DNA of 64,000 bases from Candidatus Latescibacterota bacterium (GTDB lineage: Bacteria > Latescibacterota > UBA2968), in the NCBI GenBank assembly GCA_022823725.1, contig JAJEHL010000039.1, positions 7,632 through 71,631 of the forward strand. The letters run 5' to 3'. Position numbers and translations under genes: made by a program. Positions 32,437-60,118 of the stretch are shown here, one piece after another. A model generated the notes under the pieces. That model searched no databases and had not been told where the DNA came from. It worked only from the letters and a program-made list of their open reading frames with translations. Position 1 is the first letter of the stretch; the number at the start of each line of letters is the position of its first letter.

Positions 32437-32446
32437 AGGGGTAAGT

Positions 32447-42925: not shown

Positions 42926-42930
42926 CTTTT

Positions 42931-44345: not shown

Positions 44346-45401
44346 ATGGCAGCCGAAATGTATGCAGGCGCAGAATGGGATCCGGAAAACCCGCGCATGC
44401 ATATTGGTACACAGCGGTTTTCCACGTCGGATGAGCATCTCGAGTTTCTCGCGCGGTGTGGTGTTACGAATATGGCGCTCAACGATGCCAGAGAAATTAC
44501 GCCAGATCCAAGTAGCGGTTGGACAGTGGAAGAGATCGTGGAGAAAAAAGAAAAAGCAGCAAAACACGGCATTACCGTGGAAATGGTGGCATTGCCGGTG
44601 CAACATCTCAATGTCAATGGCAGTTTTGTGCCCGAGTTTATGCGCGGGAATATGAAGGATGGCGAGAAAGAAATTGAGATTGCCTGTGATATGGTGCGCG
44701 CTGCCGCAGATGCGGGTATTCCCGCGCTGAAGTATTTTCTTTGCGAAATGGAAAATCAACGCACGGAAGGCGTTCCGCTGGGGCGGGGAGGTGTGCGCTA
44801 TTCCACGTGGGATTTGTCTGTGGCCGATGTGGATACGCCGCGGTATGATGAACCGGTTACAGCAGAACAGAATTGGGAAAATATTACTTTCTTTTTGGAG
44901 CGCGTTATTCCCGTTGCTACCGAATGCAAAGTGCGTATGGCCTGTCACCCGTGCGATCCTTGGTTGCCGCCCGGTTACAAAGGTGTTGATCGCGTGCTGG
45001 GTGGATACGATGGATTCAAGAGTTTTATCGATATTTGCCCAAGTCCTTACCACGGTCTCAATCTTTGCCTCGGTTGCATGGCGGAGAGCGTTGTGGATCC
45101 TCGCAATGAGGTGGCCGATATTATTCGCTATTTTGGGGAAAGAAAAAAAATTCATCTTATCCACTTTCGCAATATTACGGGGGGACGCAACAAGTTTCAG
45201 GAGGTTTATCCCGATGAAGGCGATATGAATATGTTTGTGCTGATGAAAGCGCTCAAGGAAGTGGGCTATCCGCACATGATTGTTCCCGATCACGCGCCTG
45301 GCCACGAGGCGCAAGGGCATTTCGAACAGGCATTCGCTTTCCAGTTTGGTTTTATCAAAGCTCTGCTTCAGGCGGTGGAGATAGAAACAGGGGAGGAGTG
45401 A
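44346..45401 (+). CDS. uxuA: mannonate dehydratase
   Basis: ...VRMACHPCDPW..., ...IHLIHFRN..., ...IVPDHAPGH... align with the UxuA blocks (VRMAVHPDDPP, IYFTHLR, RPDHGH). Start at ATG 44346 with AGGAGA RBS. Confidence 0.75.
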   Translation: MAAEMYAGAEWDPENPRMHIGTQRFSTSDEHLEFLARCGVTNMALNDAREITPDPSSGWTVEEIVEKKEKAAKHGITVEMVALPVQHLNVNGSFVPEFMRGNMKDGEKEIEIACDMVRAAADAGIPALKYFLCEMENQRTEGVPLGRGGVRYSTWDLSVADVDTPRYDEPVTAEQNWENITFFLERVIPVATECKVRMACHPCDPWLPPGYKGVDRVLGGYDGFKSFIDICPSPYHGLNLCLGCMAESVVDPRNEVADIIRYFGERKKIHLIHFRNITGGRNKFQEVYPDEGDMNMFVLMKALKEVGYPHMIVPDHAPGHEAQGHFEQAFAFQFGFIKALLQAVEIETGEE

Positions 45402-46405
45402 TATCCTTGAGTTATTCAATTCGAGAGATTCGAGAGGCGTTGGGAATGTGTAGCCGATTGTCGCTTGCCGATTTGCCCACGCCGTTGATGGATTGCCCGA
45501 GGTTGGCAGAGAAGTTGGGTGGACCGCGTATCTTGGTCAAGCGTGAGGATCAGACGGGGTTGGCATTTGGGGGGAATAAGGTGCGCGAGTTTGAATATTC
45601 CGTAGCTCCTGCTGTGGATGAGGGGTATGATGTGTTGCTTCACGGCGCGGCATCGCAGTCGAATCAATCGCGGTTGACCGCAGCGGTTGCGGCGAGGTTG
45701 GGTCTGAAGGCTGTGATGGTGGGGCGCAAGGATGACCATGCAGATCCCGTGAATGGCAATTTGTTGCTCACGCATCTGTTTGGCGCAGAGGTGCATTTGA
45801 TTGAGGGCGAGCAGGAAAAGCAAGCTGTTATTGAAAAGTTAAAGGCCGATGGACACAGGGTCTATAACACGAGTTCGGATGGGTATTATTATCGCAGCGT
45901 GTCTTATGTGGATGGGTTTTTGGAATTGTGGGAGCAGATGCAGGCAATGGATGTGATACCCGATGCCATCTATGTGTGCGCGGGCGTGCATACGCATACC
46001 GGGCTTGTCGTTGGTGCAAAAGCACTGGGTGTTGATGTGCGGATTATTGGCATAAGTCCGAGTCCACAGGACGATGAGAAAAAGAATGTGCAACTCGCCG
46101 AGGTTGCAAATGAGGTGTGTAATATTCTGAATTTGGATCTGAATTTTACGGCAGATGATTTTGAGAGTTATGGCAAATACGCTGGACCGGCTTATGGGGT
46201 GCTGACGCCCGGCGCGCGAGAGGCCGTGTTGTTGGCCGCGCAAACCGAAGGGTTGCTGCTGGATCCCGTTTATGCGGGCAAAACGTATGGTGCAATGATT
46301 GAGCATATCCGCGAGGGATGGTATCGCAAAGATCAAACGGTTGTGTTTGTGCATACGGGTGGGACCCCTGCGCTATTTGCTTATGGCGATGAGTTGTTGG
46401 CATAA
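45398..46405 (+). CDS. PLP-dependent ACC deaminase / D-cysteine desulfhydrase family enzyme
   Basis: ...LADLPTPLMDCPRLAEKLGGPRILVKREDQTGLAFGGNKVREFEY... is the fold-type II PLP signature. The start is uncertain (GTG 45398 or ATG 45446). Confidence 0.7.
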   Translation: MISLSYSIREIREALGMCSRLSLADLPTPLMDCPRLAEKLGGPRILVKREDQTGLAFGGNKVREFEYSVAPAVDEGYDVLLHGAASQSNQSRLTAAVAARLGLKAVMVGRKDDHADPVNGNLLLTHLFGAEVHLIEGEQEKQAVIEKLKADGHRVYNTSSDGYYYRSVSYVDGFLELWEQMQAMDVIPDAIYVCAGVHTHTGLVVGAKALGVDVRIIGISPSPQDDEKKNVQLAEVANEVCNILNLDLNFTADDFESYGKYAGPAYGVLTPGAREAVLLAAQTEGLLLDPVYAGKTYGAMIEHIREGWYRKDQTVVFVHTGGTPALFAYGDELLA

Positions 46406-46425
46406 ATATTGAAAGGATTTGAACG

Positions 46426-48201
46426 ATGCAATCCGAATCTGACCGCCGCGACCAGAGTGTGCTTTACGAACCCAATGAGCGGCCCCCAAATACCATTGCT
46501 TTCGCGCTTGGATTTCAGGCGGCTATGCTCTGTATTGCGGGCATTGTGATCACGCCGGTCATCGTGGTGAGGGCTGCGGGTGGGGGGGAGCCTTATCTGT
46601 CGTGGGCGGTTTTTGGTGCGCTTTTGGTCAGTGGGTTGACCACGGTGTTGCAGGCTGTGCGCGTTGGACGCATTGGCGCTGGCTATGTTCTCCTCATGGG
46701 CACTTCTGGCGCGTTTATCGCGGTTTGTGTGACAGCACTTGCCAAGGGCGGTCCGGCGATGCTCGCGACTCTGGTCGTCATCTCGTCGTTGTTCCAATTC
46801 GCGCTCTCGACGCGGCTTTCGCTGTTGCGACGAATCATTACGCCAACCGTGGCTGGAACGGTGATTATGTTGATCGCGGTGACCGTTATGCCGATCGTCT
46901 TTGATATGTTGGCCGATGTGCCCGAAGGTACGCCCTCGGCTGCCGCGCCCGCGTGTGCTATCGCAACCTTGTTCGTCATCGTGGTGCTCGCGTTGCGGGT
47001 TTCGGGTGTATGGCGCCTTTGGGTGCCAATCATCGGGATCGTTGTAGGATGCATTGTCGCTTCGTTTTTTGGGCTGTACGACATCCAGCGCGTTATTGAA
47101 GCTCCCTGGATAGGGTTTCCCGCAGGTGGCGGTTGGCCGGGTTTTGATTTCAGCTTTGGCCCTGTTTTCTGGTCGCTTCTTCCCGCTTTCATATTTGTGA
47201 CCCTGGTCGGTGCGATCGAAACAATAGGCGATTCTATCGCCATCCAGAAGGTTTCGTGGCGCACGCCCCGCGCGCCCGATTTTCGGGCGGTGCAGGGCGC
47301 TGTCACCGCAGATGGCGTGGGCAACTTGCTTTCTGGCATTGCGGGAACAGTTCCAAACACGACCTACTCGTCAAGTGTTTCAATCACGGAACTCACCGGC
47401 GTTGCCGCGCGCGGTGTCGGCGTGTGTATTGGTATTGTATTTGTGACGGCGTCCTTTCTGCCCAAAGTGTCGGCCCTCCTTCTGGCAATTCCCAATCCCG
47501 TGGTCGGGGCCTATGTGACGGTGCTGCTGGCACTTCTCTTTGTCGTGGGTATGCGGATCATCGTGCAGGATGGGGTAGATTATCGCAAGGCGATGATCGC
47601 GGGAACCGCATTCTGGATTGGCGCGGGATTTCAGGATCAGGCCATTTTTGCGGAATATCTCGGCGAGTGGTGGGGGGCACTGCTCGGCAATGGGATGACG
47701 GCTGGCGGCCTCACGGCGATTTTCCTGACGCTGTTTATGGAGTTGACAGCACCGCGCCGGCAGCGCGTGGAGACCGCGCTCACTGTCGAGGCTTTGCCAG
47801 AGATTATGGCTTTCCTCGAAAAATTCGCTTCGCGCAGGGGTTGGGACGCCGGGATGACGAATCGTCTCTGTCTATCTGCCGAAGAAACCCTCCTGATTCT
47901 CATTCAGCAAGGGGAGGACGAACAGGCGGAGAAACGCTTGCTTCTAATTGTGCGCAGCGATGGCGGTAATGGCGCGGAACTCGAGTTTATCGCTTCGACG
48001 GGTGAGGGGAATATTGAGGACCGCATGGCCTATCTTAGAGAACAGACGGAAGAGATGCCGGTAGAGCATGAAATCTCGCTGCGATTGCTTCAGCATTTCA
48101 CATCGTCTGTGCGTCACCAGCAATATCACGATGCGGATATTGTAACGGTTCGCGTTGAGGCTCCGGTGGGAGAGAAAAAGTCAAAAGAAGAAGGCGAATA
48201 A
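46426..48201 (+). CDS. NCS2-family nucleobase (xanthine/uracil) permease with ~150-aa C-terminal cytoplasmic extension
   Basis: There are multiple TM helices, and ...SVSITELTGVAARGVGVCIG... is an NCS2-like motif. The C-terminal soluble region (...RLCLSAEETLLILIQ...ELEFIAS...) is not part of canonical NCS2 transporters. Confidence 0.6.
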   Translation: MQSESDRRDQSVLYEPNERPPNTIAFALGFQAAMLCIAGIVITPVIVVRAAGGGEPYLSWAVFGALLVSGLTTVLQAVRVGRIGAGYVLLMGTSGAFIAVCVTALAKGGPAMLATLVVISSLFQFALSTRLSLLRRIITPTVAGTVIMLIAVTVMPIVFDMLADVPEGTPSAAAPACAIATLFVIVVLALRVSGVWRLWVPIIGIVVGCIVASFFGLYDIQRVIEAPWIGFPAGGGWPGFDFSFGPVFWSLLPAFIFVTLVGAIETIGDSIAIQKVSWRTPRAPDFRAVQGAVTADGVGNLLSGIAGTVPNTTYSSSVSITELTGVAARGVGVCIGIVFVTASFLPKVSALLLAIPNPVVGAYVTVLLALLFVVGMRIIVQDGVDYRKAMIAGTAFWIGAGFQDQAIFAEYLGEWWGALLGNGMTAGGLTAIFLTLFMELTAPRRQRVETALTVEALPEIMAFLEKFASRRGWDAGMTNRLCLSAEETLLILIQQGEDEQAEKRLLLIVRSDGGNGAELEFIASTGEGNIEDRMAYLREQTEEMPVEHEISLRLLQHFTSSVRHQQYHDADIVTVRVEAPVGEKKSKEEGE

Positions 48202-48226
48202 TTACCCAAAAATGTAGAGGTTTAAT

Positions 48227-48715
48227 ATGGTGGATTTTAAGACAATGGCCGCAGATGTGGGTGCGTTGCTAAAAGAAAAAGGACAGACCGTGTCGGTGGC
48301 AGAGTCTTCGGCGGGTGGAATTATTTCAGCAGCACTTTTGGCTGTGCCGGGGGCTTCGGCTTATTTCAAGGGTGGTGGGGTGTGTTATACGGGTGATTCA
48401 AAGCAGACATTGATGGCTGTTTCAGATGCGGCAATGGGCGAGGCGCGGGCTGCGACAAAGACGCACGCACTGCATCTGGCTCGCGCTGCGCGCGAACGTT
48501 TGGGGGCGGATTGGGGCATCGGCGAGACGGGCGCGGCTGGTCCGACGGGAAATCGGTACGGCGATCCGCCCGGTCATACGTGTATCGGCGTTGTGGGGCC
48601 AGATACCGAGCGTGCGATTGCGAGCGCAACGGGCAGCGAGAACCGGGGCGAGAATATGGAAGTGTTTGCCCGCGAAGCATTAGATCTGCTGGTTGAATGC
48701 TTGCAGCGGGATTGA
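48227..48715 (+). CDS. CinA C-terminal domain protein (nicotinamide-nucleotide amidohydrolase PncC-like)
   Basis: ...TVSVAESSAGGIISAALLAVPGASAYFKGGGVCY... is the CinA-C signature. Confidence 0.75.
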   Translation: MVDFKTMAADVGALLKEKGQTVSVAESSAGGIISAALLAVPGASAYFKGGGVCYTGDSKQTLMAVSDAAMGEARAATKTHALHLARAARERLGADWGIGETGAAGPTGNRYGDPPGHTCIGVVGPDTERAIASATGSENRGENMEVFAREALDLLVECLQRD

Positions 48716-48733
48716 TTGTCCAAGGAGGGAGAT

Positions 48734-49981
48734 ATGGCAGAGTTAGCACTGTTGGGAGGCGAGCGTGAGGTAAAAGAGAAGGATGATATTTTATGGCCGA
48801 TGTATGATGCGGCCGAAAGAGATGCTCTTATTGAGGTGCTGGAGAGCCGGGCGTGGTACAATTCCTCGAAGTGCCAGGAGTTTGAAGAGACGTTTGCGGC
48901 GTTTCAAGATGCGAAATACGGGATCGCGTGTACTGGCGGCACGGTGGCTCTGGAGATGATTTGTCGCGGGGCGGGCATTGGCGTAGGCGATGAGGTGATT
49001 ACGAGTGCATATACGTTTATCGGTACGTGTTCGGGGATTCTGAAAGCAGGTGCTACGGTTGTTTTTTGCGATATAGACCCGGATACCAATAATCTCGATG
49101 TGGCGGAGGTCGAAAATCTCATCACAGAGCGCACGAAGGGGATTATGCCGGTGCATTTTGGTGGGTTGGCGTGTGATCTCCAGCGGTTGTTGGATATTGC
49201 CGAGCGACACAATCTCGCGATTTTAGAAGATGCGGCGCACGGGTGGGGATCTACTTATCGGGATCGCGGGCTGGGCAGTTGGGGACTGGCTTCGGGATTT
49301 TCTTTTCAGCAGAGCAAAAATATGACGGGTGGAGATGGGGGCATTGCCCTGACCAATGACGAGGCAGTTGCCGATGCGATTGGCTGTGCGACTAATGTCG
49401 GGCGGTCGCGGTATGGTCGTACGGAGGAATCTCGACAATGGGGTGGGAACCATCGGATGACGGAGTTTGTCGCTGCGGTCTTATTGTGCCAGTTGAAGCG
49501 CATTCCCGAGCATACGGAGATCCGCGAACAAAATGGGGCGATGTTGACGCGCACGTTGTCGGAGGTTGAGGGTATTGAGCCGATTCACCGGTTGGAAGAT
49601 GCAACCCGCGTCAACTGGCATGTGTATGGTGCGCGGTATTTATCCGAGGCGTTTGATGGCGTTTCACGCGATGCATTTGTCAGGGCGATACGCGCTGAAG
49701 GTGTGCCGGTGAGTACGGGATACGAGACGCCGGTTTACAAACATCCGGTTTTTCAAGAGGATTGGAAAGCACGCGATTACACGCCTTTTGCGTGGACAGA
49801 TGCGGCGCAGGATTATCGCTCGTTGCACTTGCCAAAGGTCGAGCAGTATTGCAGGGAACGGCTGTCGATAAGCCAGAGGGCTTTGCTGGCTTCTGAAACG
49901 CGGATGCGGGATATGGCGCGCGCATTTGTCAAGGTGCGCGAAAATGCAGATAAGCTTCGGGAATGGGAGAGAAGTAACTAA
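48734..49981 (+). CDS. DegT/DnrJ/EryC1/StrS-family PLP aminotransferase (sugar aminotransferase/dehydratase)
   Basis: ...CTGGTVALEMICRGAGIGVGDEVITSAYTFIGTCSGILKAGATVVFCDID... is the DegT family fold. AGGAGG RBS. Confidence 0.75.
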   Translation: MAELALLGGEREVKEKDDILWPMYDAAERDALIEVLESRAWYNSSKCQEFEETFAAFQDAKYGIACTGGTVALEMICRGAGIGVGDEVITSAYTFIGTCSGILKAGATVVFCDIDPDTNNLDVAEVENLITERTKGIMPVHFGGLACDLQRLLDIAERHNLAILEDAAHGWGSTYRDRGLGSWGLASGFSFQQSKNMTGGDGGIALTNDEAVADAIGCATNVGRSRYGRTEESRQWGGNHRMTEFVAAVLLCQLKRIPEHTEIREQNGAMLTRTLSEVEGIEPIHRLEDATRVNWHVYGARYLSEAFDGVSRDAFVRAIRAEGVPVSTGYETPVYKHPVFQEDWKARDYTPFAWTDAAQDYRSLHLPKVEQYCRERLSISQRALLASETRMRDMARAFVKVRENADKLREWERSN

Positions 49982-50000
49982 ACGAATAGAGGAGACGATC

Positions 50001-50720
50001 ATGTTTGAAAATGCAATTGGACTAAAGCAGAAATACCGCAATGGCGAACGCATTATTGGCGTGTCTATGGCACCGAATACACCGCCGGATCGGTTTGATC
50101 AGATTATGGATAAAGATGATTACGATTTCGTGTCTATTGATAGCCAGCATACGCCGTTGAGCGAAGAGCGCATTGCGGCGTTTTGCGATATGGCTGCCGA
50201 GCGCGATGTGTTCGTGCAGTTTCGGATTAAACACACGCGCAATGCCTATTTGATTGGCAATTATCTCGATTTGGGTCCGTGTGGGATCGAGATTCCGCAG
50301 ACCGAGTTGGAAGAGACGGTTGATGATGCGTTGCACTATTTTTATTATCCGCCAGATGGAGGGCGCAGTTTTGGCGGGGGACATCGGCGAGGCGCGGAAG
50401 GTAAAGAGGCAGAGGAGTACGCGGATTGGTGGAATAGCTTTGGGATTTTGTGGTTGCAGATTGAGTCGGTAGAGGCTGCAACGCGCGGGCATTTGCTCGC
50501 GAAGGCGGGTGTGGATTGTTTGTCGATGGGTCCGACGGATTTGTCTATGAGCATTAAGGCACATCCGCAACACTGGTTGAAATCTGTGGATGATACGATT
50601 GCGTATTTGTGCAGGTCTTTGGAAGGGACTGGCGTGGCGGTCTGTCATCGCAATCGCACACCGGATACGCGCGAGAAATACGCCGATATGGGGGTGACGG
50701 TGTTTTTGGAGAGTGCGTAA
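50001..50720 (+). CDS. HpcH/HpaI-family aldolase (2-keto-3-deoxy-acid aldolase / citrate-lyase-beta-like)
   Basis: ...VSIDSQHTPLSEERIAAFCDMA... and ...LQIESVEAATRGHLLAKAGVDCLSMGPTDLSMS... match the HpcH/HpaI aldolase. GAGGAG RBS. Confidence 0.65.
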   Translation: MFENAIGLKQKYRNGERIIGVSMAPNTPPDRFDQIMDKDDYDFVSIDSQHTPLSEERIAAFCDMAAERDVFVQFRIKHTRNAYLIGNYLDLGPCGIEIPQTELEETVDDALHYFYYPPDGGRSFGGGHRRGAEGKEAEEYADWWNSFGILWLQIESVEAATRGHLLAKAGVDCLSMGPTDLSMSIKAHPQHWLKSVDDTIAYLCRSLEGTGVAVCHRNRTPDTREKYADMGVTVFLESA

Positions 50721-50852
50721 AGACATGTCATCCGCAGATGAACGCAGATAGACACAGATAAAAGGCGGATACGACGGTCTTTTTGGAGAATGTGTAGGTG
50801 CGGGTTTGAAACCCGCACCTGCGGCCCACCCAAATTTCAGGAGGTTAATACC

Positions 50853-52085
50853 ATGCCTGCTATGCCAGCGAGAGAGATTCCATTGTCCGATGCGCCGCGA
50901 GATGAGGTGAATGCTGCGGATTTTTTTGATCGGGAATCTATGACATGTGGTCTGGAAGATGCGGTTGCATCGTTGCCAGAGAGCGGTGGTCGGGTGCGTA
51001 TTCCAGCGGGTACATATCTTTTGCGCAAGACGCTGTACGTGCCCAGTCGGGTGAGTTTGATCGGAGATGGGCCAGCGACGGTGTTGAGGATTCGGCCTTT
51101 GCAGGTGGCTTATCTGTCAAAAGATATTCGCAAAGGTGGTCGGGTGTTGACCTGTAAGACTGAGCCGCCTTTTCGCGTGGGTGAGGGGATTGGGGTTTGC
51201 GACGATAAGCACAGGGGATGGTGGGGTACGCATGGGGAGGTCGAACGGGTTGTGGGCAATCGCGTGTGGATGAATGTGCCGTTTAATCGGCGATTGTTGG
51301 CGTGTGACAATGCTCGGGTGGTGAATTTGTTTCCCTGTATATGGGCAGAGGGTGAGACGGATATTGAGATACGGGATTTGACGATTAAGGGACCTGAAGA
51401 TTACGAGGGTGATTGGTGGGATTTTACGTATTCGGCGGTGCATATTGTGGGCTGTGAGCGCGTACGCGTTCTGAATTGTTCGGTGTTTGGATGGCCCAGC
51501 GATGGGTTTGGGATTCAGCGCGGTTGCGATGCCCAGGTAGCGCATTGTCAGGCTCATGAATGTCGCGGGCATGGATTTCATCCCGGAACGGGGTTGGCGC
51601 GAAGTGTGTGGTCGCACAATATTGGGAAGGGAAATGGGGGCGATGGGTATTATTTTTGTGCGCGGGTGCATCATTCGGTGTGTAGCGATAGCGTGTTTTC
51701 CGAAAATGGACAACACGGGATTGGCGGTGTGGCAAATGGTGGGGATCACCACAATATTGTGAGTAATAATGTGTGTTCGTACAATGGGATGTGTGGGATA
51801 GATGCCAATAGAGGGGATGAGCAGGTGATTACGGGGAATTTGTTGCTGAGCAATTCCCGGGCGGAAAAGGGAGAATATCCCGGTATCCGCGTACACGATT
51901 TGACTCATTCGATCATGCAGGGCAATCGGTGTGCAGACGATCAGGAAAAGCCGACGCAGTTGAAGGGTATTGAGGAGAGCGGTGAGAGCGACTATAATTT
52001 GATTAGCGGTAATTTGTGTGTGGGGATGGATAAGGCTGTTGCTGTTGTGGGGAGAAATAGCCGGGCAGAGGGAAATTTGGTGTGA
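50853..52085 (+). CDS. right-handed parallel beta-helix (pectin-lyase-fold) protein
   Basis: Repetitive NxxxxN/G beta-helix rungs (...HNIVSNNVCSYNGMCGIDANRGDEQVITGNLLLSN...). The function is not assignable. Confidence 0.5.
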   Translation: MPAMPAREIPLSDAPRDEVNAADFFDRESMTCGLEDAVASLPESGGRVRIPAGTYLLRKTLYVPSRVSLIGDGPATVLRIRPLQVAYLSKDIRKGGRVLTCKTEPPFRVGEGIGVCDDKHRGWWGTHGEVERVVGNRVWMNVPFNRRLLACDNARVVNLFPCIWAEGETDIEIRDLTIKGPEDYEGDWWDFTYSAVHIVGCERVRVLNCSVFGWPSDGFGIQRGCDAQVAHCQAHECRGHGFHPGTGLARSVWSHNIGKGNGGDGYYFCARVHHSVCSDSVFSENGQHGIGGVANGGDHHNIVSNNVCSYNGMCGIDANRGDEQVITGNLLLSNSRAEKGEYPGIRVHDLTHSIMQGNRCADDQEKPTQLKGIEESGESDYNLISGNLCVGMDKAVAVVGRNSRAEGNLV

Positions 52086-52090
52086 TATGT

Positions 52091-52120
52091 AGGGGCGACC
52101 CCCTGTGGTCGCCCGCTTTT
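52091..52120 (+). terminator. intrinsic terminator (GGGCGACC-loop-GGTCGCCC + GCTTTTT)
   Basis: A perfect 8-bp GC-rich inverted repeat with a 6-nt loop and T-run lies immediately after the beta-helix gene stop. Confidence 0.6.
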
Positions 52121-52134
52121 TCAGGAGATGAATC

Positions 52135-52923: not shown

Positions 52924-52927
52924 ATAA

Positions 52928-53407: not shown

Positions 53408-53420
53408 TGGGATAGTCCTT

Positions 53421-53539: not shown

Positions 53540-53555
53540 AATAGCCTCCTCGGAA

Positions 53556-55097
53556 TTAGTTGCGCGATAATTCTAAGATGCCAAAACTGTTTTTGGGAAT
53601 CAAGAGATTATTGCAAGCACCAGACCATTCGCGGATCGCGACTTCTATTTTGCCCGCGCCTTCCATTTCCGCATTGCCTCCGTTTGATGCATTGAGCCTT
53701 TCATGGGCTACGTAGCGGTATGTGAGCGCGCCTTCAAATTTTTTGCCGTCGATGGTGAGGCTCGGCGACAGGTCGTCTGCTGTGCGGTTGCTGATGAGAA
53801 CAAAAAGGTGCGAGGTGCTTCCGACTGCTTGTGCTTGAATGCCCGGTATTTGTTTTCCCTCGTATTCGAGTTGTCCATTGAGGATGGGTGGATTTTGGAC
53901 GGAGAGGGCGAATTTCGCGTCCGATTGCGCGAATGCTTCTCCAATTAATTGAAGGGGATAGTAGGTCGCGCGCCGAATTGTTTTTCCAAAATCCGCCTCT
54001 GGTTCGCCTCCGTATTTCCAATTGGTTCTCGGCGATGGGGGTGTGATTGGGGAGAATGCGGGAAATCCTTTGCCGGGACCAGCTATTACGTGAAAGTTTG
54101 CATGGGTAATGCGCGGTTGCGTGAGCATTTTTAAGAAGAAGTCGCCCGCGTACATGGCGTGCAGTTGTGTATTGGCGACCCGGTTTGCGGGGTTGGCGAT
54201 ATTCCACTCGGTTATCCACATTTCTTTGTTGGGGAATAATTTTTTATAGTAGTCCATGGCGTCGTCGAAGTCGCAGTGGATCCAACCAAAGAGATAGCCC
54301 CGATATTCCTCAATTTCTTTTTTTCGAGCGGTTCGATACGCATAGACGTGAACGGTATAGGCGTCGTAAAATTGATCCGCAGCCGCCAATGCACTATCCC
54401 ATTTGCGTTGATCCACGTTTTTTTCAAAGCCGTTTTTGTGGAAGGCTACCGGGCTTGCACAGACCGAGACTTTTATCGTTGGGTCAATCGCTTTCATCGC
54501 CTGTGCGTGTTTTTGAGCTTGTGCGATATAGGTTTCGGCAGAGGGATATTTTTCCGCGTACCAAGGTAGGTAGTACTCATTTCCGAGTTCCCAATACGCG
54601 ATTTCGTATCCCTTGTTTTTTGCGTATTGAACCCATCCAGCACTTTCTTTTGGGCTCCCCGTCCAAAGATTGACGACTGCGATGGGCGTTATTTTTAGCG
54701 CGTTGCACATCTGCATGAAGTCGTCAAATGCAAGTCTCCCATTTCTCCTTTTTCTCAGTCTGACAAAATTGCCTCTGTTTCGTCTGTTGAGTTGCTCGCT
54801 GGTGGTTGAACTCATTTCACTCTGGATAAATCCAGCTATTTTCCAGTGGTAAAAATTGCCGATTGTGCCTCCGGGAAAACGCAGTGTTTGGGGTTGCAGG
54901 TCTTTTGTGAGCGCGACGAAGTTAGAGTCGAGATAACCGTAGTCACCGCTCATCATGTTCGTGTTGAAGCCGTAGAGGCTTTTGGGGAGGGGTTGCGTCT
55001 GGTCAGTTTTTAGATGTAGTACAGGATCGGCGGCTTGAGAGGAATACCCCAAACTCGTGTAAAATACCGCGATAAGCAATATGGACCTGAGACGCAT
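53556..55097 (-). CDS. secreted clan GH-A glycoside hydrolase (GH5/GH51/GH79-like)
   Basis: A signal peptide is present, ...YWELGNEYY... supplies the acid/base NEP-type motif, and ...MWITEWNIA... the nucleophile. ...LRFPGGTIGNFYHW... is a GH-A (beta/alpha)8 barrel block. Confidence 0.65.
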   Translation of the reverse strand: MRLRSILLIAVFYTSLGYSSQAADPVLHLKTDQTQPLPKSLYGFNTNMMSGDYGYLDSNFVALTKDLQPQTLRFPGGTIGNFYHWKIAGFIQSEMSSTTSEQLNRRNRGNFVRLRKRRNGRLAFDDFMQMCNALKITPIAVVNLWTGSPKESAGWVQYAKNKGYEIAYWELGNEYYLPWYAEKYPSAETYIAQAQKHAQAMKAIDPTIKVSVCASPVAFHKNGFEKNVDQRKWDSALAAADQFYDAYTVHVYAYRTARKKEIEEYRGYLFGWIHCDFDDAMDYYKKLFPNKEMWITEWNIANPANRVANTQLHAMYAGDFFLKMLTQPRITHANFHVIAGPGKGFPAFSPITPPSPRTNWKYGGEPEADFGKTIRRATYYPLQLIGEAFAQSDAKFALSVQNPPILNGQLEYEGKQIPGIQAQAVGSTSHLFVLISNRTADDLSPSLTIDGKKFEGALTYRYVAHERLNASNGGNAEMEGAGKIEVAIREWSGACNNLLIPKNSFGILELSRN

Positions 55098-55106
55098 GGC
55101 GCTTCC

Positions 55107-56648
55107 CTACTCCATAACAACTTTTATACCTGCTTCGCGCAATTTGTGCTCTTGTCCAACGGGTGTGTGGAGCAAGGTGTAAAAGCGGTCGAGTCGTTCT
55201 TTGTCTTGCGGTTTGGTGAGTTTGCTGACGATGATGAGTGCGGCAAAGCCACCGGCGATGTAGAGCACATAGCGATAGGGCAATTCCCAGCCGAGGCCGC
55301 CAATGTAGATGCCCAGGCTTTCCAAATTGATGATTGTTTGACCGGATATGGCGAATAAGAATGCCGAGACGATCAGGCCCGCCCAGGCGCCGGGTGCATT
55401 GCACCTGCGCCAGAGAATACCTCCCCAAAATGCAATCCCAAAGAATGCCACGAGCGACCAGGAGAGGCGAATAATCGCGACGACAGAGGTGAAATAGAGC
55501 GCGATGATGATGCCGAATATGACCAGTATGAGGGCGACGATGCGACCTGTGGTGAGGTAGTGTTTGTCGTCGGCTTCGGGTTTGAAGAGGGGTTTGTAAA
55601 AGTTTTCGACAAAGAGGGCGGCGCCATCGACCATAAATGAGTCGCAGGTGGACATGACCGCGGCGATCATTGAGGCGAGCATGATGCCGATGAGACCGAT
55701 GGGCAAGAGGTCGCGCGAGGCGAGTCCAAAAGCGTGTTCAGGATCGTCGATGTTGGGGTAAAGGGCAATGCAGGCTACGCCGGTAAATGCCCAGGCTACG
55801 GTGCAGAGGCGTTTGATCATGTTGCCGTATGTGAATCCCACGCGGGCTTCGCGTTCGGTTTTGCCCGCACCGCCAATTTCCATGTGGTGGGGTTGGGCAA
55901 TGATGCCGACGAGGGCGTTGATGACGACCATGACGATGAAGAAGGGCGTGATGCGGTCGTATCCGGGCGGGGGATCGCCGGGTGCTGCAAGGCTAAATTT
56001 TTCAATGGGGACTTGCTGGTGAAGGCCGGTGAAGCCGCCGACGCCGTCGATGACAAAGGGGATGAGGAGAAAAGAGAGGACGATGATAAAGATGCCCTGG
56101 ATAAAGTCGGTGATGATGGCTGCGGGCAGGCCGCCTAACAGACCGTAGGAGAGGAAGAGGACGGTCATCACACCGATGGCGATTTCGGGGGAAATCGCAC
56201 CGCCGGTCATGGCACTGGCTGTTTTGCCCGTGCCCAGGAGCATGATGCCTATTTGTATGGCAAAGTAGAGCAGGCCATAGAGGGCGTAGAAATAACCGAG
56301 CGAGTTGCTGAACCGGTCTTCAAAGAAGTCCGCGATGGTGAGATAGCGCAGTCTTCGCCATATTGGCGCGATGAGCCAATAGAAGGGGGTGGCAAATAAA
56401 TAGAGCCATTGATACCATATTCCCGCCATGCCCAATTTGTAGGAGGCTCCTGCAACGGTGACGGCCTGATCTGTGTGGGTGCCGGTGCCAAAGGCGTGCA
56501 TGATCATAAATGCTTTGCCAAAGCTGCGTCCACCCATAAAATAGTCGCCCGTATTTTTGATTTTGCGGGCGACCCATAAGCCGGCAATCATGATGCCAAT
56601 TAAATAGATGGCGAGGGTGGCAAAGTCCAGCGCGTGTAGTCCAAGCAT
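55107..56648 (-). CDS. sodium:solute symporter (SSF family)
   Basis: 513 aa with about 13 TM helices and an SSS-like N-terminus (...DYFMGGRSFGK...). Confidence 0.8.
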   Translation of the reverse strand: MLGLHALDFATLAIYLIGIMIAGLWVARKIKNTGDYFMGGRSFGKAFMIMHAFGTGTHTDQAVTVAGASYKLGMAGIWYQWLYLFATPFYWLIAPIWRRLRYLTIADFFEDRFSNSLGYFYALYGLLYFAIQIGIMLLGTGKTASAMTGGAISPEIAIGVMTVLFLSYGLLGGLPAAIITDFIQGIFIIVLSFLLIPFVIDGVGGFTGLHQQVPIEKFSLAAPGDPPPGYDRITPFFIVMVVINALVGIIAQPHHMEIGGAGKTEREARVGFTYGNMIKRLCTVAWAFTGVACIALYPNIDDPEHAFGLASRDLLPIGLIGIMLASMIAAVMSTCDSFMVDGAALFVENFYKPLFKPEADDKHYLTTGRIVALILVIFGIIIALYFTSVVAIIRLSWSLVAFFGIAFWGGILWRRCNAPGAWAGLIVSAFLFAISGQTIINLESLGIYIGGLGWELPYRYVLYIAGGFAALIIVSKLTKPQDKERLDRFYTLLHTPVGQEHKLREAGIKVVME

Positions 56649-56660
56649 ATATCTCCTCTC

Positions 56661-57905
56661 TCAGAATGTATCTTTTTGCGGTGTTGCACCATCGGCCACG
56701 TCGCGTTTCCAGGCGTCGATTGCATGGCACATTTGTTGGACGCGATGGGATTGTTGCGATGCGAGGTCGTTACTTTCCGATATGTCACGGGATAGGTCGA
56801 ATAGATGCGGCGTGCCTTTTTCGATTACGAGTTTGTACTTGTCGTCGCGCATGGCAAGGCCATTCCAGAACAGTTGTCGGGCACCGGGTTCGCTCTCGTT
56901 CAGGAGGGTGGATTTGAGGCTGATGCCGTCAAAGTGATTGTCTGGCGCAGGTGCTCCTGTGAGGTCGCACATGGTGGGAAAGAGGTCGATGCTGATGGCG
57001 AGTTGGTCGGTGACGCTGTTGGGAGCAATTGTTCCGGGCCACCATGCAATGGCGGGGACGCGGTGGCCGCCTTCCCATACGGTGCCTTTGTTCCCGCGCA
57101 ACGGTGCATTGGATTCGGGATTTTGACGGGTGCCGCCGTTGTCGGAAAAAAAGAAGACGAGGGTGTTTTTCTCAATGCCGAGTTCTCTCACTGTGCCCAT
57201 AATTTCGGCCAGGCTGTCGTCCATGGCTTTCATCATCTGGCAATAGGTTTCTCGGGGGTCGTCGGGATGAAAGTTTGCTTTTTCCGGACCGCGAATGGCG
57301 GGATCATCTGGTCCCTGCAAGGGGGTGTGTACGGCTTCGTGTGCAACGTAGAGGCAAAAGGGCGTGTCTTTGTGGTCTTTGATGAATTGTACCGAATGCT
57401 GGGTGATGAGATGCGTGGTATATCCCTCTTCTTCGATGTGTTCGAGGCCCTCCCACCAGTCGTACACTTCCATACGGTCGTAGTGCGAGATGTAGTCGAT
57501 GTTGCCGCTTACATATCCGCGAAAGCGGTCAAAGTCGTGGTGCATGGGATTGAATTTTTTGTCGTATCCGAGGTGCCATTTGCCAAATATGGCAGAGGTG
57601 TAGCCAGCTTTTTTGAGCAGTTTGGGAAAGGTGATTTCAGAGGGGTACAATCCCACATAGTGGTCGGCGCTTTGGGGATTGGCACCGATCACTTTGGGCA
57701 CGCCAGCGCGCTGTTGATAGCGTCCGGTGAGCAGTCCGGCGCGCGTGGGGCTGCAAACCACACCGCTGGAATGAAAATCGGTGAATTTAAGCCCTTCGCG
57801 GGCCATTTGTTCCATTGCGGGCGTGTCGATCCAGCCCCCGTACGCACTGGAATCCCCATAGCCCATGTCGTCGGCGAGTACGATGATGATGTTGGGTTTG
57901 TTCAT
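56661..57905 (-). CDS. sulfatase (formylglycine-dependent, Cys-type)
   Basis: ...IIIVLADDMGYGDSSAYGG... and the CSPTRAGLLTGRY sulfatase signature 1 are present, along with a downstream GKWHLG motif. Confidence 0.85.
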   Translation of the reverse strand: MNKPNIIIVLADDMGYGDSSAYGGWIDTPAMEQMAREGLKFTDFHSSGVVCSPTRAGLLTGRYQQRAGVPKVIGANPQSADHYVGLYPSEITFPKLLKKAGYTSAIFGKWHLGYDKKFNPMHHDFDRFRGYVSGNIDYISHYDRMEVYDWWEGLEHIEEEGYTTHLITQHSVQFIKDHKDTPFCLYVAHEAVHTPLQGPDDPAIRGPEKANFHPDDPRETYCQMMKAMDDSLAEIMGTVRELGIEKNTLVFFFSDNGGTRQNPESNAPLRGNKGTVWEGGHRVPAIAWWPGTIAPNSVTDQLAISIDLFPTMCDLTGAPAPDNHFDGISLKSTLLNESEPGARQLFWNGLAMRDDKYKLVIEKGTPHLFDLSRDISESNDLASQQSHRVQQMCHAIDAWKRDVADGATPQKDTF

Positions 57906-57909
57906 ACGT

Positions 57910-58710
57910 TCAATTCACTTCATTCATTCTAAAGCCGGACACAATGGTGCTGTCTTTGCGTTCCAAGATGTTGTTGGGATCAATGCGGTAGGGGTCGTCT
58001 TCTGCGCGGCCCACGGGTTGCATCTGGGTGCTGTGGTAGCCGAAGCGCACGGATTTTCGCCATTCGTTGGTGCGGTTACAATCGGACCAGTGAATGATCT
58101 GATAGCTAAAGAAGATGACGTCTCCGGCGTTTGCCGGGATTAAGATGGAGTCGATTTTGTCGGGGTGGTACTCATCTGGGGGCAGATGAGGAGAGGTGTC
58201 TGGACCCAGGACGTGAACGAGCGGGCCCTTTTTGTGGCTGCCGGGTACCACGCGCAAGCACCCGCTTTCTATTGGGGTGTCGTCCAGGTGGAGCAGGCAA
58301 TCGACAAAGTCGGGACCGTCGTGCGGATAAAAGGGATAGTCCTGGTGCATGGGAAAAGGCGTGCCGAGTTCTGGTGGTTTGGCATGGAGTACGGTGTGGT
58401 GCCACTGAACGGTGTCGCGGATCAGGTCTTCTACACAGCCGACGAGTCGTTCGTTGAAGATGGCACGCCCCCAGGTTGCGGAGTAGAATTGGGGATTGTG
58501 CATGAAGACGGCTTTGGTGTTGAGACGTTCGTCTTTGGGCAGGTATCGATCGCGCCAGGGGCCCCGCCAGCCAATGGTCTCATTGCCCCAGTTTTCGATG
58601 ATGCGCACCATTTCCGAGCCGAGTTCGGCGGTTTCTTCAGGTGTAAAGAGCGCTTCGCATTTGAGATATCCATTTTCGTGGTAGAAGTCGATTTGTTCTT
58701 GTGTCAACAT
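57910..58710 (-). CDS. phytanoyl-CoA dioxygenase (PhyH) family Fe(II)/2OG oxygenase, second paralog
   Basis: MLTQEQIDFYHENGYL... parallels 52135-52923, and ...HQDYPFYPHDGPDFVDCLLHLDD...VPGSHKKG... The start is set at the internal ATG matching the paralog N-terminus; the track ORF extends to 58806. Confidence 0.7.
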   Translation of the reverse strand: MLTQEQIDFYHENGYLKCEALFTPEETAELGSEMVRIIENWGNETIGWRGPWRDRYLPKDERLNTKAVFMHNPQFYSATWGRAIFNERLVGCVEDLIRDTVQWHHTVLHAKPPELGTPFPMHQDYPFYPHDGPDFVDCLLHLDDTPIESGCLRVVPGSHKKGPLVHVLGPDTSPHLPPDEYHPDKIDSILIPANAGDVIFFSYQIIHWSDCNRTNEWRKSVRFGYHSTQMQPVGRAEDDPYRIDPNNILERKDSTIVSGFRMNEVN

Positions 58711-58873
58711 GGCGTCCTCCAAATATAATAACGCAAGAGAACAAGGGATTTGCAAGGATCTCCCCCAGTCCCTACGTCTCCCCGTTCTCTTGCGTGATTT
58801 TTTCAATTATTGCATTGGCCCAATATAGCATGATAGATGCGTTAAAAAAAGTAAAATTCTGCGTTTTAGACCC

Positions 58874-60118
58874 TCATTTTTTGGGAATTTGAATGGCCGC
58901 ATTGGGAAAAACGGCAACGCGGGCATTATCGGGCAATTTTACAATGAGTTGGTTGAAGAGCGTGTCCCAGTCGCGGAAGAGGACACCGTCGGGGTTGCGT
59001 TTGTAAAATTCGTCAACCGGAAAGTTTTCAGACCACATCAGGGTCTGGTGCGGACCTTCGATTTTGGGTTCGGGGAGTTCTTGCTGGGGCTGTTCAGATT
59101 TTAGTTTGCAAAATCGCGCGTAGTCTATTTCGTCGTATAATCCGTGGTGACATATTCCATCGGTGGCGGGATTGATGGCGACTTTGTAGGCGTTTTTGAA
59201 CAGCCGAAGCGGCCAGAGTGCTTTGCCAGCTTGAACGGGGTCGTAGTCGAGTGGATAGCAGTTGGCAATGACGAGGTCAGGCTCTGTTTCTGGTGCCTGG
59301 GTTGCGTAGGTTTTTAGTGCGAATCGGGCACCGGTACGCTGCGCCTGGATGAAGTCGCCCACAAATACACCGGTGATCTCGCGTTTGTGGTTGAGTGTTA
59401 CATTGACGACGGCATCGAGGCCCAGGACTTTTGCGACTGCTTCGGCGGCGTCTCGGTGGTCGGGTTCGTCGCCCTGTCGTTCAATATTGGCGTGTCCTCG
59501 GCTTGCGTAAAAGGTGTGGAAGTAGAACATGGTGGCAAAGCCCGATACGCCCGGTAAAATGAGTTTGGCACCGCCGCCAAAACCCACGTTGCCGTGGGGA
59601 TAGATGCCGCCTACGCAGAGCTTGAGGTCGGCATCTGCGACAACTCTGTCTATGTAAATGGGGAGGCCGCTGTCCAGGCTGCCCAGTGCGCGGAGGTCGC
59701 CGCTCATGAAGTTGTGGTTCGTGACTTGATATGCGCGGGCGATGTTAGCCCCTACTTTTTTGTCGATTTCCTCCGCGTCGATTGGACGATGAGAGCCTCC
59801 ACCTACGACAATGCGGATTTGGTTTTTTGGTATGCCGGCTGTGTCGAGTTCTTTGAGGACATAGGGGATGAGTTCGGCAGCGGGTGTGGGACGGCTCAGG
59901 TCATCGACGATGATTGCGGCGCTGTTTTTCCCTTTGGCGAGTTCTGAAATCCGCGGTGTGCCGATGGGGTTGTCAAAGGCGGTTTGGATCTGGTCTGCGG
60001 TGACTTGAGGACATTCCTGTGGACCAAAGGTTTCAACTATCCAGCCTTTGGGAAAGGTGATGGTGAGGGCTTCATCACCCGCCCATGCGCGGGTGTGTAT
60101 TGTGGCGGTGTTGGTCAT
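58874..60118 (-). CDS. LarA-family nickel-pincer-nucleotide-dependent racemase/epimerase homolog
   Basis: ...AAIIVDDLSRPTPAAELIPYVLKEL...IRIVVGGGSHRP... matches the LarA N-terminal (DUF2088) signature. 414 aa, typical LarA size. Confidence 0.6.
   Translation of the reverse strand: MTNTATIHTRAWAGDEALTITFPKGWIVETFGPQECPQVTADQIQTAFDNPIGTPRISELAKGKNSAAIIVDDLSRPTPAAELIPYVLKELDTAGIPKNQIRIVVGGGSHRPIDAEEIDKKVGANIARAYQVTNHNFMSGDLRALGSLDSGLPIYIDRVVADADLKLCVGGIYPHGNVGFGGGAKLILPGVSGFATMFYFHTFYASRGHANIERQGDEPDHRDAAEAVAKVLGLDAVVNVTLNHKREITGVFVGDFIQAQRTGARFALKTYATQAPETEPDLVIANCYPLDYDPVQAGKALWPLRLFKNAYKVAINPATDGICHHGLYDEIDYARFCKLKSEQPQQELPEPKIEGPHQTLMWSENFPVDEFYKRNPDGVLFRDWDTLFNQLIVKLPDNARVAVFPNAAIQIPKK

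Follow-up and report, generated by a model that had tools for sequence, protein, structure and literature searches.

A probable mosaic of catabolic gene modules for acidic and sulfated sugars in a clade of sponge-associated Latescibacterota

The Latescibacterota and Poribacteria of sponges are uncultured and are assumed to live on sulfated glycans of the matrix; that sponge symbionts feed on such glycans is an ecological expectation already in print (PMC5649159, PMC8163846), and the enzymes concerned are hardly characterised. The described systems that lie closest to the locus considered here are the alginate epimerases of the AlgE type, the GH51 and GH79 glycosidases, the carrageenan and sulfated-galactan loci of marine bacteria, the non-phosphorylative pathways for sugar acids, and the adjacent yidK and yidJ genes of Escherichia coli; among relevant enzymes, the LarA superfamily includes D-gluconate 2-epimerases that produce D-mannonate (PMC11770544). 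The locus is a block of 14 genes at positions 44346–60118 of a 64,000-nucleotide stretch of contig JAJEHL010000039.1 from a Candidatus Latescibacterota bacterium, and this whole stretch is referred to below as the window. An exact match to it is found in a 121-kb metagenome scaffold (ENA ERZ23491381, KELL22-1). As a sulfated-glycan and sugar-acid cluster it is of a general kind known from marine and sponge bacteria, with an unusual composition and no characterised counterpart, and the literature on sponge Latescibacterota (PMC12993501, PMC8163846, PMC5649159, PMC9531527) gives the ecological context and does not describe it. One of its products, a right-handed beta-helix protein, is 94–98% identical to the copies in about 12 metagenome-assembled genomes (MAGs) of Candidatus Latescibacterota, jk18x7bins.9 included; the jk18x7bins series derives from the sponge Ircinia cf. 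reteplana (PMC9531527), and the host organism is most likely a sponge-associated Latescibacterota bacterium.

The original prediction, made from the sequence alone, had read the block as one polysaccharide-utilisation module for sulfated glycans containing uronic acids. We prefer, with a probability of roughly 0.55, a reading in which it consists of two catabolic operons of separate origin that form a lineage-specific mosaic for acidic and sulfated sugars in one clade of sponge Latescibacterota. The mosaic would comprise at least three catabolic gene modules and would not have evolved as a single polysaccharide-utilisation locus (PUL). We regard it as catabolic rather than biosynthetic because it encodes three importers and one secreted hydrolase and no glycosyltransferase or nucleotidyltransferase was found between 38 and 63 kb of the window, the range in which all long open reading frames (ORFs) were scanned against Pfam and NCBIfam and to which the absences of gene families given below refer unless another range is named.

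All 14 of the gene families originally named are present within the block, with strong and significant matches, and both of its ends are gene starts, the Met start of a UxuA-like gene (44346) and the start of a LarA-like gene (60118). The plus-strand string, 44346–52923, encodes the UxuA-like protein, a fold-type II pyridoxal phosphate (PLP) enzyme of the PALP family, an NCS2 permease, a CinA C-terminal domain protein, a DegT aminotransferase, an HpcH aldolase, the beta-helix protein and a PhyH dioxygenase (PhyH1); most gaps are 0–50 bp, the exception being 132 bp ahead of the beta-helix gene. Read from 60118 down to 52928, the minus-strand string encodes the LarA-like protein, a second PhyH dioxygenase (PhyH2), a sulfatase, an SSS symporter, a glycosidase and a GNAT acetyltransferase, with gaps of 4 bp between PhyH2 and sulfatase, 12 bp between sulfatase and symporter and 9 bp between symporter and glycosidase. 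The GNAT gene had been assigned to the plus-strand block and in fact lies on the minus strand (52928–53407). No enzyme of the locus reaches an NCBIfam equivalog cut-off, so that names such as 'mannonate dehydratase' are to be read at the level of the family only; at that level this name and 'ACC deaminase', both used in the original prediction, stand, and as statements of specific function they do not.

The inheritance of these genes in modules is observed directly. We gathered 80 genome loci around homologs of the beta-helix gene, which is the anchor of the conserved plus-strand module, and scored every protein of the window by tblastn, in a matrix that spans 85 loci in all. The full arrangement, including two flanking genes for an APC permease and a 414-aa protein, is present in only about 14 MAGs of one close clade, in which protein identities are mostly 93–99% and never below 88% (range 88–100%). 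Three loci with 84–87% identity in the beta-helix protein keep only NCS2-CinA-DegT-HpcH-beta-helix and have different genes after it (ornithine cyclodeaminase, MazG). About 20 loci in the 60–70% tier, from Latescibacterota and from MAGs labelled Gemmatimonadota, keep PALP, DegT, HpcH and beta-helix, and CinA sometimes, among neighbours that include a second HpcH, a Thr-type sulfatase-like protein, an MR_MLE enzyme and ornithine cyclodeaminase; at loci with less than 55% identity none of the partner genes accompanies the beta-helix gene. The original prediction had named a lack of co-localisation in relatives as a ground for abandoning the single module, and outside the one close clade the genes are not co-localised. 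For the minus-strand string, a search of metagenome contigs with the sulfatase gave one informative relative, the 3-kb contig L093, which keeps the pair of sulfatase (83% identical) and symporter and has no PhyH2 upstream of the sulfatase.

The end of synteny with the distant relatives coincides exactly with a hairpin resembling an intrinsic terminator (52093–52114, plus strand), which has an 8 bp stem with 7 G-C pairs followed by GCTTTTT; it lies 8 nt past the beta-helix stop, heads the list of terminator-like sites between 42.8 and 60.5 kb, has the most G-C pairs of them, and is the probable end of the plus-strand operon. Composition also differs among the genes. GC skew at third codon positions (GC3 skew) depends unusually strongly on the strand, at about +0.3 to +0.5 in plus-strand genes and about −0.35 to −0.6 in minus-strand genes, the plus strand being G-rich irrespective of gene orientation. 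It is weaker in the UxuA-like (0.19), NCS2 (0.14) and glycosidase genes than in their neighbours, which is consistent with a later arrival of these three, and the glycosidase gene has the lowest GC of the locus genes. On the modular synteny and these compositional differences together, the 'island' is therefore best described as a recent mosaic.

At 27 of the 58 loci outside the close clade a gene of the sulfatase family is found no more than 10 kb from the beta-helix homolog, in several arrangements, and this recurrent adjacency supports a link between the plus-strand module and sulfated sugars. In one of these arrangements (loci L047 and L069) the genes directly upstream of PALP-CinA-HpcH-beta-helix are those for a leaderless Cys-type sulfatase, a PhyH protein, a PfkB kinase, a GFO/IDH/MocA oxidoreductase and a TIM barrel like that of xylose isomerase. 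A separate observation concerns loci L028–L038, L044, L052 and L068 (cluster c5), which have a conserved 456-aa protein of the sulfatase family beside the beta-helix module (12212–13582 in L037); in it a Thr replaces the formylglycine Cys/Ser (T-I-P-I-R-C-Q-L-M-T-G), and the protein is therefore more probably a phospho-type hydrolase or transferase within the alkaline phosphatase superfamily than a sulfatase.

On substrates, on the sequence of steps and on a possible connection of the modules we infer the following. Module 1 (plus strand, about 44.3–52.1 kb) would have an old, phylum-wide core of PALP lyase, CinA-C, DegT, HpcH and beta-helix protein, with the UxuA-like dehydratase and the NCS2 permease as additions in the close clade. 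Its substrate would be an imported acidic sugar or short oligomer of the uronate or aldonate type, probably bearing amino or amide groups: the beta-helix enzyme would epimerise or cleave the acidic sugar, DegT, PALP and CinA would strip nitrogen from it, the UxuA-like enzyme would dehydrate the sugar acid, and the class II aldolase would act on the resulting 2-keto-3-deoxy acid, giving pyruvate plus an aldehyde. Module 2 (minus strand, 53.5–58.7 kb) would have a cytoplasmic formylglycine sulfatase and a Na+ symporter as its core pair and a secreted GH51/GH79-like glycosidase and a PhyH dioxygenase as additions; the glycosidase would free a sulfated sugar outside the cell, which the symporter would import for desulfation in the cytoplasm. 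The LarA-type epimerase, PhyH1 and GNAT would be accessory tailoring enzymes.

The UxuA-like protein (44346–45401, plus strand), a putative sugar-acid dehydratase with a xylose-isomerase-like TIM barrel, matches Pfam UxuA with 130.6 bits over profile positions 174–320 only, and also matches AP_endonuc_2. Among solved structures it is closest to mannonate dehydratases (E = 1e-23, over the C-terminal half only), and it scores 108 bits with the UxuA equivalog NF003027 (cut-off 191) and 75 bits with TIGR00695 (cut-off 199.6); it is a divergent member of the family and not an UxuA equivalog, and its gene adjoins the module only in the close clade. The PALP enzyme (45398–46405, plus strand; PALP 148 bits) belongs to the family of D-cysteine desulfhydrase, ACC deaminase and cysteate sulfo-lyase. 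Among NCBIfam models CuyA scores highest (254 bits, cut-off 450), followed by XcbE and D-cysteine desulfhydrase (199 bits, cut-off 429), with ACC deaminase at 188 bits (cut-off 392), and its closest solved structure is a D-cysteine desulfhydrase (E = 8e-54). Membership is thus clear at the family level, and the protein is a putative alpha,beta-eliminating deaminase or lyase; orthologs with 72–78% identity are found near DegT, HpcH and beta-helix genes at about 18 distant loci. The NCS2-family permease (46426–48201, plus strand; Xan_ur_permease 173 bits) scores below the cut-off of TIGR00801 and has an additional cytoplasmic C-terminal domain of about 150 aa (residues ~450–591), in which residues 452–564 weakly match HATPase_c_2, a fold like that of anti-sigma-factor kinases (E = 0.005). 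The extension is also present in a representative homolog of 615 aa at L019, and the gene accompanies the module both in the close clade and at the three loci of the 84–87% tier, whose NCS2 orthologs are 78–79% identical.

The CinA protein (48227–48715, plus strand; Pfam CinA 146 bits) has a PncC-type C-terminal domain (TIGR00199 PncC_domain, 92 bits against a cut-off of 68.9) and is a putative amidohydrolase or deamidase, with orthologs of 73–85% identity adjoining DegT, HpcH and beta-helix genes at five loci (L003, L019, L020, L022 and L069). The label '2-oxo-tetronate isomerase' (PRK03657) was dropped for this protein, which matches that model weakly (43 bits, cut-off 201); OtnI as characterised is b2739, an enzyme that DeepEC wrongly calls hydroxypyruvate isomerase (PMC12506659). 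The DegT/DnrJ/EryC1-family PLP aminotransferase (48734–49981, plus strand; start codon uncertain within 48716–48734) matches Pfam with 304 bits and has PseC as its best NCBIfam model (209 bits, cut-off 423). Glutamine:(2-deoxy-)scyllo-inosose aminotransferases and perosamine synthase are among its full-length PDB matches, and orthologs of 59–85% identity lie upstream of the beta-helix gene at 21 distant loci. The HpcH/HpaI protein (50001–50720, plus strand; Pfam 35.6 bits, cut-off 25) aligns end to end with its best solved relatives, 2-dehydro-3-deoxyglucarate aldolase 4tv5 (E = 2e-13) and YfaU, and its D-S-Q-H, F-R-I, Q-I-E-S and G-P-T-D-L segments correspond to the D-x-x-H, R, IE and GPxDL motifs of 4tv5. 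We predict from these motifs that it is an intact class II pyruvate aldolase of this family for 2-keto-3-deoxy sugar acids; its orthologs (60–91% identity) are positioned between the DegT and beta-helix genes.

The beta-helix protein (50853–52085, plus strand; Beta_helix 55 bits) begins MPAMPAREIPL, with no hydrophobic stretch like that of a signal peptide at its N-terminus, and is predicted to be cytoplasmic. Its AF2 model has a mean pLDDT of 93.7, and the top Foldseek matches are AlgE4 and AlgE6 (TM about 0.6), capsule depolymerases and lyases, GH28 and GH110; a profile of the family, which has 385 representatives at E <= 1e-30, matches AlgE4 (E = 8e-12), AlgE6 (1e-8) and 8ja4 (8e-8). In the alignment with AlgE4, GHGFHPG stands opposite GYGFDPH and N-G-G-D-G opposite N-G-L-D-G, so that the segment H240-G-F-H243-P-G245-T occupies the place of the AlgE motif YG(F/I)DPH(D/E). 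We take the catalytic residues of AlgE4 to be Tyr149, Asp152 and His154. G241, H243, P244 and G245 are invariant among 26 family sequences, and D264 is present in 25 of them. The protein is therefore not filed as an epimerase, the catalytic motif of AlgE being altered; by its sequence it is a relative of the uronan epimerases and lyases in which three catalytic residues are replaced, and not a canonical epimerase.

The glycosidase (53556–55097, minus strand) has an N-terminal Sec signal peptide, MRLRSILLIAVFYTSLGYSSQA. By phmmer it matches GH51 at E = 4e-11 over residues 34–216 only, the N-terminal half, and its profile matches are weak (51 bits with NCBIfam ArfA, whose cut-off is 625; Pfam GH79n, below the cut-off). 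The structural model is of medium quality (pLDDT 73), and Foldseek places GH51 first, with a TM of about 0.64 at about 16% identity, followed by GH79, GH86, GH44 and GH30 (14–18% identity; TM 0.6–0.65 for GH51 and GH79). N173-E174 and T296-E297-W298, the sites of the acid/base and of the nucleophile, are invariant in 26 homologs. The protein as modelled, a (beta/alpha)8 barrel with a C-terminal beta-sandwich, is thus assigned to the retaining glycosidases of clan GH-A, nearest GH51 and GH79, in agreement with the secreted clan GH-A enzyme first proposed, and it may represent a separate GH family or subfamily. One relative is 91% identical and more than 100 clusters follow at 63–69%, from Poribacteria wherever they are named. 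In three genomes of the Poribacteria type (L090, L091 and L092) homologs with 63–68% identity lie inside biosynthetic clusters for sulfated exopolysaccharide or capsule (at about 3000–19000), which encode a Wzx/MurJ flippase, a Wzy-like protein, four sulfotransferases, glycosyltransferases, an initiating transferase, Wzi and an epimerase, and in two of the three (L090 and L091) also dockerin-tagged sulfatases. In the window, 148 bp separate the glycosidase gene from that for GNAT.

The sodium:solute symporter (55107–56648, minus strand; Pfam SSF 142 bits) has PutP, PanF and then the solute:sodium symporter PRK10484 as its best NCBIfam matches, all below their cut-offs, and is likely the importer of the substrate of the sulfatase. 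The latter (56661–57905, minus strand; Pfam Sulfatase 210 bits) contains C51-S-P-T-R55, which conforms to the formylglycine motif C/S-x-P-x-R, and the metal-binding pair D12-D13, as expected of an S1 sulfatase. It is the Cys-type enzyme originally described, but it is leaderless: with the sulfatase domain beginning as early as residue 4 and no upstream extension of the ORF possible, there is no signal peptide. The protein is predicted to be cytoplasmic, and this location suggests that it desulfates an imported small molecule and not a polymer. Carbohydrate sulfatases are typically exported, with a signal peptide. The closest solved relatives are the S1 sulfatase for exo-4S-kappa-carrageenan 6prm (236 bits) and S1_16 9fo1 (224 bits), followed by human GALNS, a GalNAc-6-sulfatase (196 bits), and S1_19 9hh3 (195 bits), and carbohydrate sulfatases score well above arylsulfatase and choline sulfatase. 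By substrate, the nearest are sulfatases for galactose-4-sulfate and GalNAc-6-sulfate.

Both dioxygenases are of the Fe(II)/2-oxoglutarate type and by inspection have an H-x-D...H triad, WHQDAP with a distal HG in PhyH1 (52135–52923, plus strand; Pfam PhyH 125 bits) and MHQDYP with a distal HW in PhyH2 (57910–58710, minus strand; 102 bits); their matches include ectoine and amino-acid hydroxylases. An ortholog of PhyH1 is found beside the module in the close clade only. PhyH2 homologs (58–78% identity) are widespread in related MAGs, among neighbours that vary and are never sulfatase, SSS or glycosidase genes. In L088 and L089, from MAGs labelled Gemmatimonadota, there are four or five PhyH genes within 17 kb, beside MR_MLE, GFO/IDH/MocA and amidohydrolase genes, and PhyH paralogs are strongly expanded in these lineages. 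The GNAT N-acetyltransferase (Acetyltransf_1 67 bits) is encoded by the last gene of the minus-strand string, convergent with PhyH1.

The LarA-like protein (58874–60118, minus strand; Lar_N 168 bits) has SRPTP, GSHRP, YPHGNVGFGGGAK and FYFHT segments that align with motifs of the solved LarA 9eid; the catalytic and NPN-binding residues of LarA are presumably the equivalents of Arg75, His108, His174, Lys184 and His200. Judged by this alignment, it keeps the NPN-binding and catalytic motifs and belongs to the LarA superfamily. Its NCBIfam scores are 221 bits with the malate racemase LarAH6 (cut-off 500), 188 bits with LarA (cut-off 460) and 21 bits with the hexonate epimerase model (cut-off 500). 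The protein had been called atypical for a locus of this kind, and it is less so given the gluconate 2-epimerases of the superfamily (PMC11770544), yet this copy is nearest to malate and lactate racemases.

Several points weigh against the two-operon mosaic. Since none of its enzymes has an equivalog-level match, they do not establish a substrate; the known role of NCS2 permeases is mainly the transport of nucleobases, and of ascorbate as well in mammalian members, and the symporter scores higher with proline and pantothenate symporters than with sugar-type models. The catalytic motif of AlgE is altered in the beta-helix family, with His in place of Tyr, His in place of Asp and Gly in place of His, and the chemistry of the protein may differ or it may not be an enzyme of the AlgE type. 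In the 60–70% tier purB-like and NUDIX genes lie between PALP and DegT, and conservation of module 1 could in part reflect vertical synteny and not functional coupling; the genomes also appear rich in sulfatases, and some of the adjacency of sulfatase and beta-helix genes could be due to chance. Within the window there is no regulator gene, no FGE or anSME enzyme for maturation of the sulfatase, and no larB, larC or larE.

The block could alternatively be one dedicated PUL in which all 14 genes serve one sulfated glycan with uronic acids, of the ulvan, fucoidan, carrageenan or glycosaminoglycan (GAG) type. It is tightly packed in two convergent strings that are intact in about 14 related MAGs, it brings together a sulfatase, a glycosidase, an AlgE-like beta-helix protein, a UxuA-like enzyme and an aldolase, and sulfated polysaccharides of the matrix are considered a food of sponge symbionts (PMC5649159, PMC8163846). 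The original prediction is partly supported: a catabolic theme of sulfated sugars and of acidic sugars of the uronate or aldonate type, which belongs to our preferred reading too, is backed by the relatives of the sulfatase and the glycosidase, the AlgE4 profile match, the HpcH motifs and the 27 of 58 loci. We nevertheless consider the single PUL unlikely, because the co-localisation is lost beyond the close clade, the hairpin parts the core module from PhyH1 and the minus-strand string, the sulfatase is predicted to be cytoplasmic, and the glycosidase is the only one, with no SusC/D, TonB-dependent receptor, polysaccharide lyase (PL), GH88/GH105 or canonical uronate-pathway gene (KduI, KduD, KdgK or UxaC type) in the scanned range; nor were the signature enzymes of known carrageenan, ulvan and fucoidan loci, with which a comparison had been proposed, detected there. 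A different possibility, which we think doubtful but worth stating, is that the genes are functionally unrelated neighbours, with sulfatase, SSS, PhyH2, LarA and GNAT acting on a small non-carbohydrate sulfate ester, hydroxy acid or amino acid, PALP, DegT, CinA and HpcH acting on a D-amino-acid-like or aminocyclitol compound, and the carbohydrate flavour coincidental. The symporter is indeed closest to PutP and PanF and the LarA-like protein to malate and lactate racemases, PhyH matches include hydroxylases of ectoine and amino acids, PALP is in the D-cysteine desulfhydrase family, and DegT matches inosose aminotransferases over its full length; elsewhere the module adjoins genes of the ornithine cyclodeaminase, MR_MLE, CN_hydrolase and D-Ser dehydratase types, and here a permease of the APC amino-acid type lies in the flank. 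Such a grouping would, however, leave unaccounted for a sulfatase whose closest solved relatives are carbohydrate sulfatases, a secreted glycosidase gene 9 bp from that of the symporter, a beta-helix protein homologous to uronan epimerases and lyases, and an HpcH protein closest to sugar-acid aldolases.

Catabolism of organosulfonates, with PALP as cysteate sulfo-lyase, LarA as sulfolactate racemase and DegT as sulfopyruvate/cysteate transaminase, would fit the best NCBIfam match of PALP, CuyA at 254 bits ahead of the coenzyme M (CoM) synthesis enzyme XcbE, and the racemisation of 2-hydroxy acids by LarA enzymes (PMC11770544). We regard it as very improbable, the CuyA score being far under its cut-off of 450 and PALP and LarA lying in separately inherited modules; the Pfam and NCBIfam scans also found no sulfite exporter or dehydrogenase, sulfoacetaldehyde acetyltransferase or sulfolactate dehydrogenase, and the glycosidase, beta-helix protein and aldolase would be left unexplained. 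There is similarly little to recommend a biosynthetic cluster for a modified amino sugar, an aminocyclitol or a small natural product, with an ADOP/MacB-type permease as exporter: DegT, GNAT and PhyH proteins are common in the tailoring of natural products and glycans, and the ADOP permease gene at 60297–62774 has a weak match to the darobactin exporter DarB, but glycosyltransferase, nucleotidyltransferase, PKS/NRPS, cyclase and sugar-activating enzyme are all absent between 38 and 63 kb, the locus encodes a sulfatase and a secreted hydrolase along with three importers, and the nearby aroB encodes a true 3-dehydroquinate synthase within a trp/aro supercluster. The notion of an aminocyclitol pathway built on a DHQ-synthase-like enzyme and DegT was rejected, the aroB at 38121 being bona fide (388 bits against a cut-off of 305).

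The mosaic of two operons thus remains our preferred account, and within the same catabolic frame we tentatively put forward a more specific proposal, for which the odds are low. CinA, DegT, HpcH and the beta-helix protein, with the PLP lyase, may form an undescribed cytoplasmic pathway for amino- or amido-uronates that is coupled to the sulfatase, symporter and glycosidase, one symbiont feeding on the sulfated exopolymer of another. The new AlgE-related family, with HGFHPG for YGFDPH, would act before transamination and aldol cleavage on imported amino- or amido-uronic acids or short oligomers of them, and the nearest relatives of the glycosidase would be those that serve the sulfated-exopolysaccharide clusters of co-resident Poribacteria.

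Upstream of the locus lie purF and, between it and the UxuA-like gene, genes for the APC amino-acid-type permease (40838–42925, minus strand) and the 414-aa protein (42931–44175, minus strand). The permease is fused to PTS-EIIA-2 and TrkA-C domains (Pfam), an unusual regulatory architecture. The 414-aa protein has no detectable family, with no sequence match in Pfam, NCBIfam or the PDB, and is kept in the close clade, at 94–97% identity beside the locus in all of those MAGs whose fetched flank reaches that far; by synteny, it and the APC permease are candidate members of the functional unit. GC3 skew is near zero from 39297 to 44175 (purF −0.16, APC permease −0.08, 414-aa gene −0.02), unlike the surroundings, which suggests a recent inversion or a recent acquisition of this segment. 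Downstream of the locus, the ADOP/MacB-type permease has DarB as its second-best NCBIfam model, at a score far below the cut-off. The window has no Rfam match at the gathering score in a search for riboswitches and RNA leaders, and a scan for sigma-70 promoters gave 20 sites against 15.8 +/- 5.1 in shuffled sequence, which is not above expectation.

The public records of the contig annotate, at 56661–58710, antisense ORFs of 375, 85 and 180–187 aa that have no Pfam match (for example 56805–57932, plus strand), and the sulfatase (Pfam E = 8e-62) and PhyH2 (E = 9e-29) are therefore missing from its public protein set. By leaving long antisense ORFs open, the strand bias in composition probably misleads the programs that call genes, and it is the likely reason for this omission. 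Further upstream, 19263–39287 is a large housekeeping supercluster for aromatic amino acid biosynthesis, with trpE, trpG, trpD, trpC, trpF, trpB, trpA and genes for DAHP synthase, prephenate dehydrogenase, EPSP synthase, shikimate dehydrogenase and shikimate kinase, together with aroB, among which tyrS, argS, a ubiE-type methyltransferase gene and a GFO/IDH/MocA oxidoreductase gene are interspersed. The EPSP synthase ORF (32363–33106) covers profile positions 225–410 of 417 only and overlaps the end of the prephenate dehydrogenase ORF, and it may be truncated, frameshifted or fused. At 8166–13634 the window encodes a homolog of PorV and an FG-GAP protein of 996 aa that bears a C-terminal sorting domain for type IX secretion (T9SS); the host thus has T9SS cargo, whereas the glycosidase of the locus carries only a Sec signal.

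The locus is of value mainly for its uncharacterised DegT-HpcH-AlgE-like module, its cytoplasmic sugar-type sulfatase and a GH family linked to exopolysaccharides. Three handles on the biology of these symbionts are offered: a cytoplasmic sulfatase of carbohydrate type with its symporter, a pairing shared with the unexplained yidKJ of E. coli; a well-conserved GH-A family tied to clusters for sulfated exopolysaccharide; and a beta-helix family, kin to the alginate epimerases, that has a rewired active-site motif and is partnered with DegT and an aldolase. It also counsels caution, as tidy-looking 'islands' in such genomes can be recent juxtapositions of modules.

Comparison with the described systems shows likeness in parts and divergence in the whole. 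AlgE4 (2pyg), AlgE6 (5lw3) and 8ja4 share with the beta-helix protein the same right-handed beta-helix and N-terminal cap motif, and the region of the catalytic loop aligns with G-x-G-F-x-P and N-G-x-D-G conserved at an overall identity of about 15%, but the protein of the locus has neither a signal peptide nor a Ca-binding R-module, and its partners are DegT and an HpcH aldolase, not genes for alginate biosynthesis. The non-phosphorylative sugar-acid pathways (UxuA-type, GarL and YfaU enzymes, and LarA-type gluconate epimerases) have their counterparts here in a neighbouring dehydratase, aldolase and LarA-superfamily epimerase; they differ in that no equivalog scores are reached here, that the LarA-like protein is nearer to malate and lactate racemases than to GntE, and that the UxuA-like, HpcH and LarA genes are not inherited together. 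With the GH51 arabinofuranosidases and the GH79 glucuronidases and heparanases the glycosidase shares a barrel and beta-sandwich, at a TM of about 0.6–0.65, and the catalytic N-E and E in their expected motifs; identity is only about 14–18%, sequence similarity is confined to the N-terminal half, and the homologs of the glycosidase are found in biosynthesis clusters.

The marine loci for carrageenan and sulfated galactans (S1_19 and S1_16; 6prm, 9fo1) hold the closest solved relatives of the sulfatase, at 224–236 bits over the full length, and follow the same logic of a glycosidase, a sulfatase and downstream sugar catabolism, but GH16, GH82, GH150, GH167, the Dau pathway and SusC/D are all absent between 38 and 63 kb here; the same scans gave no match to further signatures of the carrageenan, ulvan and fucoidan loci (PL24/25/28, GH29, GH107; DauA-D, KduI/KduD, KdgK), and the locus differs from the PULs of Bacteroidota in having no SusC-like TonB-dependent transporter and no SusD among these long ORFs. 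The yidK-yidJ pair of E. coli is itself uncharacterised and so explains little, and beside it stands an AraC-type regulator, with no GH, PhyH or LarA gene; identities are 25–29% (25% between the symporter and YidK) and the gene order is reversed. It nevertheless presents the same arrangement of an adjacent, co-directional SSS symporter and leaderless Cys-type sulfatase with a C-x-P-x-R motif.

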